Origin: an uncultured Verrucomicrobiae bacterium
GTDB lineage: Bacteria; Verrucomicrobiota; Verrucomicrobiia; Chthoniobacterales; UBA10450
Length of the DNA: 64,000 bases
Reading direction: 5' to 3'
NCBI GenBank assembly: GCA_963815455.1
Contig: CAWFGO010000001.1
Location: 1,120,001 to 1,184,000 of the forward strand
Part shown: positions 31,944-40,661 of the stretch, piece after piece
Position numbering within the stretch: the first letter of the stretch is position 1
Layout: each line of letters opens with the position of its first letter
Position numbers and translations under genes: made by a program
The notes under the pieces: generated by a model
Database searches by the model: none
What the model was told of the DNA's origin: nothing
What the model saw: the letters and a program-made list of their open reading frames with translations, nothing else

Positions 31944-32019
31944 GTAGGACATTGCTGCGTGTTGCCTGCTTCGGCAGGCGGGACGCCCGCCGGCCCCACA
32001 GGCAGGATGCCTGTGCTAC
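31944..32019. repeat. GTAG-type REP-like element; its GTAG supplies the sulfurtransferase stop
   Basis: Minus-strand GTAGCACAGGCATCCTGCCTGTGGGGCCGGCGGGCGTCCCGCCTGCC; sibling of 1463-1555. Confidence 0.85.
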
Positions 32020-37498: not shown

Positions 37499-37545
37499 AT
37501 TTTTTGTTCCTTTAACGCGATCCGGTGAGATCGCCAAGGAGCTCA

Positions 37546-38133
37546 ATGAAAGACCGACCAGAAAACTCTGCCTCGTCACGCCGTAACCTGGCGAAGGAGG
37601 ACGCCGTGCCGATCATGGACGCGGCCGCCATTCAACGCGCCCTGCGCCGCGTCGCGCACGAAATTGTCGAGCGCAACCCCGACTTGCGTTCGGTGGTGCT
37701 TGCGGGAATTCCGTCTCGGGGCATTGAGATCGCGCAACGCATCGCCGAATTCATCCACGGGATCGAGAAGATCGACATCGACACCGGCGTAATCGATGTG
37801 GCCATGCACCGCGATGACGTTGGCACCCGATCGGAATTGCCGATTGTGCGTGAATCGAAGCTGCCGCTGCCACTCGAAGGCCGCACCCTGATCATTGTCG
37901 ATGATGTCCTTTTCACCGGCCGGACTGTGCGCGCGGCCATGGACGCGATTAGCTCGTTCGGCCGGCCCGCCCGGATTCAGCTGGCCGTGTTAATCGATCG
38001 CGGTCATCGCGAGCTACCCATCCGCGCCGATTACGTCGGAAAAAATCTACCCACCAGCGCAAACGAGAAAATTCGCGTCCGCCTCGAGCAAACCGACAAC
38101 GCACCGGACACAGTGCATTTGGAGAAGGAATGA
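37546..38133 (+). CDS. pyrR: PyrR / uracil phosphoribosyltransferase
   Basis: IVDDVLFTGRTVRAA; DRGHRELPIRADYVGKN. Confidence 0.93.
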   Translation: MKDRPENSASSRRNLAKEDAVPIMDAAAIQRALRRVAHEIVERNPDLRSVVLAGIPSRGIEIAQRIAEFIHGIEKIDIDTGVIDVAMHRDDVGTRSELPIVRESKLPLPLEGRTLIIVDDVLFTGRTVRAAMDAISSFGRPARIQLAVLIDRGHRELPIRADYVGKNLPTSANEKIRVRLEQTDNAPDTVHLEKE

Positions 38134-38291
38134 ACGCAATGATGCAATTTCTGGGGAGGGCAGGCTGCCAGCCTGCAGCGTTTGGCAGCCTGCCGAACGC
38201 ATCCGCGTGCGATTTATCGTCAATTAAGATCCCAGGTTGGCGGCAAGCTGCCGCCAACTACAGGCTAGCAGCCTGTGCTCCCCAGATATGA
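38130..38291 (+). CDS. Putative 53-aa repeat-encoded bridging mini-ORF
   Basis: ATG overlaps the pyrR TGA; its TGA overlaps the pyrB ATG; open across the whole element. Expression unproven. Confidence 0.5.
38151..38285. repeat. 135-bp inverted-repeat element, copy 1
   Basis: CTGGGGAGGGCAGGCTGCCAGCCTGCAG...CTACAGGCTAGCAGCCTGTGCTCCCCAG. Confidence 0.92.
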
Positions 38292-39217
38292 CTACCCGGT
38301 GGATACGAAAAGATCTTCTCGGGCTGCGCGAACTTTCCGCAAACGAAATCAACTTCATTCTCGAGACAGCCGACGCGTTTAAACAAGTCGGCACCCGCGA
38401 AATCAAGAAAGTTCCGGCGTTGCGCGGCAAGACTTTGGTTAACTTTTTTGTCGAACCAAGTACGCGGACGCGCATTTCTTTCGAACTGGCGGCGCTGCGC
38501 CTGAGCGCGGACGTCATCAATATCTCGGCGGCCACTTCCAGTCTCACCAAGGGCGAAACGCTCAAGGACACGGCGCGAAACCTCGAGGCGCTGCACACCG
38601 ATATCCTGGTACTGCGCCACGGCTCCGCGGGCGCGCCGCAATTTCTGGCAACTCGTCTCAAGACCAGCGTGATCAACGCCGGGGACGGCGCCCACGAGCA
38701 TCCGACCCAGGCATTGCTCGATCTTTACACCATTCGGCAAAAACGAGGGAAAATCGCCGGACTGCATGTCGTTATCATCGGGGACATCCTGTTTAGCCGC
38801 GTGGCACGCTCAAACATTTTCGGGCTGCTCAAACTCGGGGCCCGCGTCACTCTGGTCGGGCCGAGCACTCTGGTACCGCGCGAATTCGAAAAACTTGGCG
38901 TCACCATTTCGCACAACATTGACGACGTCCTGCCCGGCGCCGACGTGGTGAATCTTCTGCGCATTCAGCACGAGCGGCAACGAAAGGAATATTTTCCCGG
39001 CATCGGCGAATACCGGAGCCTTTTTGGACTAACAAAAGACCGCGCGAAAGTCCTAAAGCCGGACTGCTTGATCATGCACCCCGGGCCGATCAATCGCGGC
39101 GTCGAGATCGACAGCGATGTCGCCGACGGCCCGCAAAGCGTCATTCTCGATCAGGTCACCAATGGCCTCGCCGTGCGCATGGCCGTTCTTTATTTGTGCG
39201 GAGGGATCGCCACGTGA
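38288..39217 (+). CDS. pyrB: Aspartate carbamoyltransferase catalytic subunit
   Basis: [33 protein letters not shown]. Confidence 0.96.
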
Positions 39218-39381
39218 GCGCGCCGCGGATCGTTCTCTCGCTGGGGAGCGCAGGCTGCGAGCCTGCAGCGTTTGGCAGCTTACCAAACGCATTTGGGCGC
39301 GAGCGAGCGCAGAAAAGACGAAGATGTTCGCGGCAGGCTGCCGCGAACTACAGGCTAGCAGCCTGTGCTCCCCAGACATGA
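39214..39381 (+). CDS. Putative 55-aa repeat-encoded bridging mini-ORF
   Basis: GTG overlaps the pyrB TGA; its TGA overlaps the pyrC ATG. Expression unproven. Confidence 0.5.
39241..39375. repeat. 135-bp inverted-repeat element, copy 2
   Basis: CTGGGGAGCGCAGGCTGCGAGCCTGCAG...CTACAGGCTAGCAGCCTGTGCTCCCCAG. Confidence 0.92.
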
Positions 39382-40661
39382 CGACCACGATCATTCGTAA
39401 CGGCCGCATCATCGATCCCGCGAACAAACGGGATGAAGTTGCCGATCTTGCAATTGTCGACGGGCGCATCGTCGACGTCTCTCAACTCTCAACCCTCAAC
39501 TCTCAACCCGAAGAGATTGACGCCACCAATCTCATCGTCTCCCCCGGGTTGATCGACATGCACGTGCATCTACGGGAACCGGGATTTTCACATAAGGAAA
39601 CCATTGGCTCCGGCGCGCGCGCCGCAGCAGCCGGCGGGTTTACCACGATTGTCTGCATGCCGAACACGTCGCCGGCGGCGGACAACCCGAGCACAATTGC
39701 CTGGATCAAGGATCGCGCTGCGGAAACGGCATGCGTGAATTTATTGCCGGCGGGAGCGATTTCAAAAAACCTCGCTGGCGAAGAACTGGCCCCGATCGGT
39801 GCGCTGGCGCGCTCCGGCGTGGTGGCAATCACCGACGATGGTCATTGCATCCAAAATCCGGAATTGATGCGACGCGCAGTCGAGTATGCGCGCATGGTTG
39901 GTCTGCCAGTGCTGGATCATTGCCAGGATTACAATCTCGTCGGCAACGGTGTGGTAAACGAAGGTTACTGGAGCACGCTGCTCGGTTTGCCAGGCTGGCC
40001 GGCAGCGGGCGAGGAAACAATCGTGACGCGCAACATTCTGCTGGCAGAAGCGTGCGATCATCACATTCATTGCCAGCACATCAGCGCGGCGGGCAGTGTG
40101 CGTTTGATTCGCGAGGCGAGGGCGCGTGGCGTCAAGATCAGCGGCGAAGTTTGCCCGCATCACATCGCGCTGACCGACAAAGCGATCGAAAACTTTGACG
40201 CGAATTACAAGACGAACCCGCCGTTGCGATCGCAAGCCGATGTCGATGCGATTCTCGAAGGAATCGCCGACGACACGTTGTCGATCTTATGTTCCGATCA
40301 CGCGCCCCACGCGGGCTTCGAGAAAGAAGTGGAGTTCGATGCGGCCCCATTCGGCATCGTCGGACTCGAAACCGAGCTGGGACTATTCATCGATTTGCTC
40401 GTGCACAAACATCGCAAGATCGACATCGGCCGCTTGATCGAGATGTACACCATCGAGCCGGCCAAGTTGCTAAAAATCGAGGCCGGGACGCTGTCGATTG
40501 GCGCACGGGCCGATGTCACATTGATCGATCCCGATCTGGAATGGACGGTCCGGATCGACAAGTTCGAATCAGCCTCGCGCAATTCACCCTTCGATGGGTG
40601 GAAACTAAAAGGTCGCGCGGTGCGGACAATTGTGGGCGGAGAGACGGTCTGGAAATTGTAG
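39378..40661 (+). CDS. pyrC: Dihydroorotase
   Basis: PGLIDMHVHLREPG, CMPNT, KTNPPLR, SDHAPH, RNSPF. Confidence 0.95.
   Translation: MTTTIIRNGRIIDPANKRDEVADLAIVDGRIVDVSQLSTLNSQPEEIDATNLIVSPGLIDMHVHLREPGFSHKETIGSGARAAAAGGFTTIVCMPNTSPAADNPSTIAWIKDRAAETACVNLLPAGAISKNLAGEELAPIGALARSGVVAITDDGHCIQNPELMRRAVEYARMVGLPVLDHCQDYNLVGNGVVNEGYWSTLLGLPGWPAAGEETIVTRNILLAEACDHHIHCQHISAAGSVRLIREARARGVKISGEVCPHHIALTDKAIENFDANYKTNPPLRSQADVDAILEGIADDTLSILCSDHAPHAGFEKEVEFDAAPFGIVGLETELGLFIDLLVHKHRKIDIGRLIEMYTIEPAKLLKIEAGTLSIGARADVTLIDPDLEWTVRIDKFESASRNSPFDGWKLKGRAVRTIVGGETVWKL
39480..39507 (+). repeat. 4 x 7-bp tandem repeat (TCTCAAC) within pyrC
   Basis: tctcaac tctcaac cctcaac tctcaac, encoding SQLSTLNSQP. Confidence 0.85.

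Follow-up and report, generated by a model that had tools for sequence, protein, structure and literature searches.

Short ORFs can serve bacteria as devices that deliver ribosomes to a neighboring gene, as occurs in the tap/repA system of plasmid R1. Other short ORFs of this type include upstream ORFs, for which the term 'delivery' is used (PMC12548453), and an arrangement described for comEB-comEC in B. subtilis (10.1101/2020.12.30.424838). As these sources present them, it is translation of the short ORF that counts and its product is irrelevant. Mobile repeats may provide such ORFs as well: for the mycobacterial MIRUs, insertion seems to occur at start codons, in such a way that the repeat's own ORF and the gene are coupled with a -4 spacing (PMC12548453, citing Supply et al., 1997, Mol Microbiol 26:991). 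Coupling through termination-reinitiation is associated with NTGA overlaps and with downstream starts that lack a Shine-Dalgarno motif, and is expected to weaken with distance in the accounts cited here (Huber et al., 2019, PMC6728339; 2023, PMC10666635; PMC12548453). Two further systems concern the repeats themselves. REPINs are inverted palindromic doublets that are present in many copies and form hairpins, and their RAYT gene is flanked by its own units (Bertels and Rainey, 2011, PMC3116915), whereas Rickettsia palindromic elements are reported as palindromic repeats that are tolerated in translated sequence if the frame is kept (Ogata et al., 2000, as described in PMC10969869). Here we describe an operon in which two REPIN-type hairpins lie between genes and in which each is spanned by a short ORF that touches the genes on both sides.

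The window, i.e., the 64,000-nt stretch of DNA analyzed here (G000:C1:1120001-1184000), belongs to a genome that is closest, among named organisms, to MAGs of the Chthoniobacterales; one of these is 'Candidatus Udaeobacter', with a PyrB protein 90% identical. It contains pyrR, pyrB and pyrC in head-to-tail order on the plus strand. The pyrR gene (37546..38133; 195 aa; stop codon TGA at 38131-38133) matches the PyrR family NF003549 with an E-value of 1e-67 and 227 bits (cut-off 138). The pyrB gene (38288..39217; 309 aa; stop TGA at 39215-39217) codes for an aspartate carbamoyltransferase with an OTCace_N domain from residue 8 and an OTCace domain, and pyrC (39378..40661; 427 aa) for a dihydroorotase-type amidohydrolase with the Pfam domains Amidohydro_1 and DHOase. 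An earlier note on this DNA had pointed out a mini-ORF that starts at 38130 and shares an ATGA with the pyrR stop as well as with the start of pyrB. This ORF was recovered with the same peptide and is referred to as bridge ORF 1 (38130..38291, plus strand, 53 codons). Its ATG, which we read as the retained ancestral start of pyrB, combines with the stop of pyrR into the ATGA at 38130-38133; the ATGA at 38288-38291 is made up of its TGA and the present pyrB ATG. The note knew of one element, that between pyrR and pyrB, which is borne out, and missed a second copy with equal architecture between pyrB and pyrC. There, bridge ORF 2 (39214..39381, plus strand, 55 codons) starts with a GTG at 39214 on the pyrB stop (GTGA) and ends with a TGA at 39379-39381 on the pyrC ATG at 39378. 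Each bridge thus has an NTGA stop/start overlap at both of its ends (38130 and 38288; 39214, as GTGA, and 39378). Searches with the bridge peptides matched no Pfam or NCBIfam family for the first and no Pfam family for the second.

Both bridges run through a hairpin element composed of two inverted 51-nt units, each with two hairpins. Copy 1 (38150/38151..38286, no strand assigned) has its units at 38150-38200 and 38236-38286, separated by a 35-nt spacer, and copy 2 (39240/39241..39376, no strand assigned), between pyrB and pyrC, at 39240-39290 and 39326-39376. The length of 135 bp given earlier for the first copy and its end 2 nt before pyrB are close to the values measured here, 136-137 nt and 1-2 nt before the ATG. 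Copy 1 has a predicted fold of -91.8 kcal/mol (z -6.45), which none of 200 shuffled sequences equaled in stability, and copy 2 one of -104.4 kcal/mol (z -6.90). The 3.6-Mb genome contains 74 units of ~51 nt with two hairpins each, arranged as 33 inverted pairs and eight solo units. One pair (C5:91077-91709; units 91077-91127 and 91659-91709) encloses a Y1_Tnp segment that matches NF047646, 'REP-associated tyrosine transposase', with an E-value of 9.5e-22 and 77.5 bits, slightly under the cut-off of 80. Judged by its anatomy, the family is a REPIN family with a putative cognate RAYT. REP palindromes bear an adjacent conserved GTAG/CTAC tag, and the sequence between the two hairpins is CTACAGG in many units and CTGCAGG or CAACAGG in others (uncounted). 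Inspection by eye of the flanks of all 33 pairs found no consistent direct repeat of the kind left by target-site duplication. Two other repeats are present in the window, an 80%-complementary inverted repeat at 747-829, whose family makes bridged inserts elsewhere in the genome, and a 47-nt unit that occurs twice (1509-1555 and 31973-32019) and whose family flanks a RAYT in carB.

This family is not confined to the extragenic location expected of REPINs: copies lie in frame inside genes, and the pyr copies inside bridge ORFs. Two family REPINs are in frame in a 1054-aa DNA polymerase III alpha-type ORF (C2:503670-506831; L123 71-3235) and one in metH (C3:173124-173272), and the element frame in which all of them are translated is the one used by the pyr bridges. 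Both of these sites are missing from the related genome G002, and the public proteins P0011, P0012 and P0016 share the in-frame arrangement. The RAYT of the family is itself carried in this way: the gene and its two flanking units, 633 nt or 211 codons in all, sit in frame in recG, between the helicase motifs (C5:89932-92697, L119), while the recG genes of G001, G010, G011 and G007 are without the insert and the alignments to query residues 2-374 and 599-922 abut. Three further RAYT segments, each flanked by its own REP-type termini (L120-L122), are in frame in metH (C3:169636-174156), alaS (C2:122846-126199, minus strand) and carB (C1:1469339-1473118). They are absent from most of five relatives; metH of G023 matches the whole insert in an open frame of 1542 aa. 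Y1_Tnp matches within open frames of 791-1353 aa are also found in G004, G005, G006, G010, G032 and the unpublished genome G008. Apart from these insertions, the reading frame of thrS switches within the catalytic core (G000:C1, ~738,750-739,110) in a region that is not a repeat, giving only a self-hit; this fits single-base assembly errors and bears on assembly quality only.

Whether a ribosome can pass an element of this type without meeting a stop codon says little about selection. The arms are nearly free of stop codons and several frames are open across most copies: among the 32 short pairs of the family, 42 of 64 orientation-reads are open in the element frame used by the bridges. The absence of a stop through the element, on which the earlier note had put too much weight, is therefore weak evidence alone, and the openness of the element by itself is not significant. 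The informative comparison is that with the same junctions in relatives, which the note had proposed for pyrR-pyrB and which turned up empty ATGA junctions. To this end, pyrB loci were collected from 30 related genomes and 80 GTDB representatives, giving 108 unique loci, with close relatives defined by a PyrB identity of at least 75% and tight junctions by a gap of at most 12 nt. The same-genus genome G001 has a plain ATGA at both pyrR|pyrB and pyrB|pyrC, and 54 of the 91 scored junctions of close relatives are tight (24 pyrR|pyrB and 30 pyrB|pyrC), from which we infer that the ancestral state was a stop placed on a start. The remaining 37 junctions, which are wider and count the two of the window among them, comprise 23 bridge ORFs tight at both ends, five in-frame N-terminal extensions and nine junctions without a start at the upstream stop. 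A start on the upstream stop followed by a broken frame occurs in none of the 37, and three of the nine startless junctions still have an ORF that ends in NTGA on the downstream start. Twenty-one of the 23 bridges end exactly at NTGA (offset -1), the exceptions being L003 (+2) and the pyrR|pyrB junction of L017 (scored as in-frame). The unpublished locus L019 (G008) provides one bridged junction, counted in these 23 and in the samples of 25 and 29 below; L005 (G015) and L022 (G003) contributed tight junctions only. Between pyrB and pyrC, the loci L017 (2442-2879) and L046 of two relatives hold a real gene of 127-145 aa with a signal-peptide-like start, counted among the inserts and with a putative resemblance to DUF1311. 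The end of this gene overlaps the pyrC start (NTGA) in both loci, and its start lies on the pyrB stop (ATGA) in L017 and at offset +3 in L046.

A frame control that makes no use of start-codon calls was applied to the 29 junctions with a gap of at least 40 nt, again including the window's own two. In it, D+1 denotes the frame of the TGA in NTGA, D the downstream gene's own frame and D+2 the third frame. The full gap is open in D+1 in 25 of the 29 junctions, in D in 13 and in D+2 in 10; the reverse frames give 11, 10 and 10, and shuffled gaps predict 8.1. Openness in D+1 thus exceeds both that of the other five frames pooled (54/145, 37%; binomial p 7.6e-8) and that of D+2 (Fisher p 1.2e-4), and this frame specificity backs the proposal of the earlier note that ribosomes may be relayed across the element. 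Gap length is constrained in the same manner, with a remainder modulo 3 of 1 in 21 junctions, of 2 in six and of 0 in two (n = 29; chi-square p 3e-5). In far relatives there is no frame bias (13, 9 and 9 of 21 open). Clustering by sequence divides the bridged inserts into 16 groups, with several unrelated repeat families among them; their fillers vary in length (21, 24, 27, 30 and 36 nt) and phase is kept in all of them. Where bridges can be aligned, they differ by indels whose lengths are always divisible by 3 (9; 15 and 6; 6, 6 and 6), and three bridges between pyrB and pyrC share the exact length of 168 nt with diverged flanks. As kin are not independent, events were also counted conservatively, which gives at least 14 bridged among at most 21 (p ~1e-8), a figure estimated from sequence clusters rather than from a tree. 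By comparison with relatives, the two-ended bridge architecture exceeds what chance would be predicted to produce.

These observations bear directly on the idea that the bridges are a legacy without function. In that case a stop-poor palindrome would have landed beside an ATGA, the open frame and the ATGA at its far end would be remnants, and translation of pyrB and pyrC would proceed by another route. The 42 of 64 open reads and the several frames that are open across most copies are what such a legacy would give, and so is the behavior of repeats in the genome at large. A crude gene finder yielded 2225 co-directional junctions; at 254 of these the genes overlap by 4 nt. Among the 258 co-directional junctions that hold repeats there is no frame bias (fD+1 15, of which 8 tight; fD+2 12; fD 10), and 221 of them are unbridged, 145 for want of a start at the upstream stop and 76 with an early stop. 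In a looser scan, 35 of 49 were tight in fD+1 and 7 of 43 in fD+2, from which no support was drawn because the chance level is high, at an estimated ~0.4. What a mere legacy leaves unexplained is that at the pyr junctions D+1 is open in 25 of 29 gaps against 37% elsewhere, that the gap phases are distributed 21, 6 and 2, that indels come only in multiples of 3 and fillers of differing length keep phase, and that different repeat families have arrived at the same architecture. We consequently regard this explanation as unlikely. The relay rule thus seems to hold for genes whose coupling predates the insertion, rather than for repeats at large.

Six other bridged junctions of the genome, which hold other repeat families, were compared with five relatives. 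In five of the six, relatives are tight at the same place, and further inserts found there are again bridged. Inserts of at least 40 nt are present in relatives at J1, J4, J5 and N2, junctions at which the genes overlap or lie within 1 nt in some relative; of these six inserts, four have a one-step bridge, one has a two-step bridge and one has none. The two-step relay is found at J4 of G001 (L146) and consists of 50 and 5 codons with an ATGA at each step. N2, first scored as unbridged, has a 36-codon ORF whose end overlaps the start by 8 nt. None of the relatives is tight at J2, and four of the five show unbridged gaps of 74-131 nt there. At N2 of G001 (L156), a longer chain of small ORFs is apparent by eye; a scripted search found no tight chain.

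The bridges might also be translated for the benefit of the transcript, with ribosomes on the 160-nt insert preventing Rho-type polarity or RNase attack. Such protection would account for selection on an open frame, and polarity on untranslated RNA is described (PMC12548453). It creates no need for the bridge to stop on the next start, though, and 21 of 23 bridges end exactly at NTGA. Heavily base-paired RNA is moreover a poor loading site for Rho, as the insert, almost wholly base-paired in its predicted fold, would be. An exclusive role in transcription or stability is accordingly improbable in our judgment.

An alternative in which the bridges are irrelevant is that pyrB is initiated independently, either from the ATG at 38288 or from an in-frame TTG at 38237, and pyrC likewise. 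An in-frame ORF that runs from this TTG, located in the right arm of the element, to the pyrB stop (38237..39217) is present, and starts without a motif are normal in this genome, which seldom uses Shine-Dalgarno sequences. The 3' end of its 16S rRNA is canonical, and a Shine-Dalgarno-like 4-mer occurs at -20..-4 in 394 of 2875 predicted gene starts vs 1930 of 20000 random sites. The present pyrB start has no such motif, as noted before us; GGAG, GAGG and AGGA are all absent from the 25 nt upstream of the ATG at 38288. The present pyrC start is likewise without a Shine-Dalgarno-like motif. The starts of the bridges do have one (GGAG/AAGGA just before bridge 1, and GGAGGG 9-15 nt upstream of bridge 2). 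The predicted energy for opening positions -15..+12 is highest at the new starts (31.5 and 32.9 kcal/mol); the bridge starts require 8.0 and 19.4 kcal/mol, and the empty junctions of G001 13.5 and 10.0 kcal/mol. This predicted cost at the new starts speaks against independent initiation, as does the fact that alignments of relatives' PyrB and PyrC begin at residue 1 of the ATG-started forms (ATG 38288 and ATG 39378), and the frame-specific conservation of the inserts would be left unexplained. Independent initiation as the main route is thus very improbable.

A shunt, in which the stem brings the pyrR stop next to the pyrB start and post-termination ribosomes cross its base without translating, finds some encouragement in the minimum-free-energy fold of copy 1, in which 38130-38132 and 38287-38289 form the lowest pairs of the stem. 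A shunt would impose no constraint on frame, stop or length phase, yet all three are constrained, which makes this explanation scarcely credible. Regulation by PyrR, if any, would concern the operon leader, outside the bridges. A PyrR-binding-like hairpin (37505..37541, plus strand) covers the AAGGAG Shine-Dalgarno sequence and the start of pyrR, and the RF00515 match at 37505-37635 is sub-threshold (26.3 bits vs a gathering score of 54, E 0.84), with high posterior in the first hairpin only. This candidate site suggests translational autoregulation of pyrR by the leader hairpin. A scan for terminators and promoters found five terminator-like sites (4.9 expected) and one promoter-like site (1.0 expected), none of them after an element. 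The Bacillus pyr operon, with its PyrR-responsive intercistronic attenuators, and the location of the hairpins in a pyr operon after pyrR would make attenuators of the same style conceivable here, but this is almost certainly not what the elements are, because an Rfam search up to E 10 placed a PyrR site only upstream of pyrR (37505-37635) and none in 38130-38291 or 39214-39381, the only matches overlapping the elements being chance-level minus-strand miRNA/snoRNA ones (E 2.7-5.6), the element is present as 33 pairs throughout the genome, and neither pyr copy is followed by a T-run.

The reading that we favor is therefore a relay by bridge translation and re-initiation across an inserted hairpin, which is probably correct as far as can be judged from the DNA. 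The architecture, its recurrence and its frame- and phase-specific conservation extend across relatives and across unrelated repeat families. In the proposed model, the ancestral pyrR, pyrB and pyrC genes would have been linked stop-to-start through 4-nt overlaps (ATGA or GTGA), and a REPIN-type hairpin with 17-27 nt of left filler would then have come to separate each pair. The old start and its Shine-Dalgarno-like motif would have stayed on the upstream stop, where they would now open the 53- or 55-codon frame through the element. Ribosomes that end pyrR, or that load at the old start, are thought to translate the bridge and to unwind the hairpin, which would otherwise block the pyrB start. 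Termination on the ATGA would be followed by immediate re-initiation on pyrB, likely the key step of the pathway, and the same would occur for pyrC.

The relay idea itself is already in print for MIRUs; what is new is its application to REPIN/RAYT hairpins, to Verrucomicrobiota and to several repeat families. Like MIRUs as described in the cited account, the pyr elements are mobile short repeats at the start of a gene within an operon, have a repeat ORF coupled downstream with a -4 spacing and can be read as insertions at little expression cost. Unlike MIRUs, with which they are compared here by description only, they are REPIN-type inverted doublets with a cognate RAYT and form predicted hairpins of -92 to -104 kcal/mol; the ORF consists of the retained host start, the filler and the element; several unrelated repeat families converge on it; and the case is built on frame and phase statistics across relatives. 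With termination-reinitiation as presented in the sources above, the locus shares the NTGA overlaps and the motif-less downstream starts, and the expected weakening with distance applies to both. It differs in that two coupled steps would occur in series via a non-genic ORF. The elements resemble the REPINs of the cited description in their inverted palindromic doublets, copy number, hairpins and unit-flanked RAYT, and depart from it in having copies in translated sequence, both at operon junctions and in genes, and a RAYT in frame inside recG. The Rickettsia elements, again compared by description, similarly illustrate tolerance of palindromes where the frame is kept; in the cited account they are in frame within genes and form no separate intergenic relay ORFs. 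As in the ribosome-delivering short ORFs, translation would matter here and the product would not, though those ORFs, as portrayed in their sources, are not created by mobile repeats. Literature searches by keyword found no description of REPIN relay ORFs.

A broader and distinctly more tentative proposal is that the REP/RAYT systems of this soil verrucomicrobial lineage live in translated sequence as a rule. RAYTs would then be expressed via their host genes and be hard to lose, non-autonomous copies would persist at ancestrally overlapping junctions only as relays, and the stop-free arms and phase-keeping fillers would be adaptations to a host that depends on re-initiation and not on Shine-Dalgarno sequences. 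This is possible, although we would sooner doubt it than rely on it. For genome annotation, the bridges call for caution, because ORFs of 20-70 codons are below the usual length cut-offs and are in some public gene calls merged with pyrR or pyrB. This is exemplified by the public metagenome gene calls P0003, P0005 and P0007, in which the repeat peptide extends PyrB at its N-terminus or else, following apparent frameshifts, is joined to a C-terminal portion of PyrR or PyrB; in P0003, element and pyrB share one frame.

In all, the relay would extend the idea developed for MIRUs to REPIN/RAYT elements and to another phylum. The insertions described here amount to mutagenesis carried out by nature, in an uncultured soil lineage that is abundant worldwide and has few Shine-Dalgarno sites. 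Where genes are joined by ATGA, hairpin inserts of 70-200 nt seem to be tolerated mainly if a frame carries ribosomes from stop to start, which provides comparative evidence that coupling by re-initiation may be near-obligatory for ATGA-joined genes.
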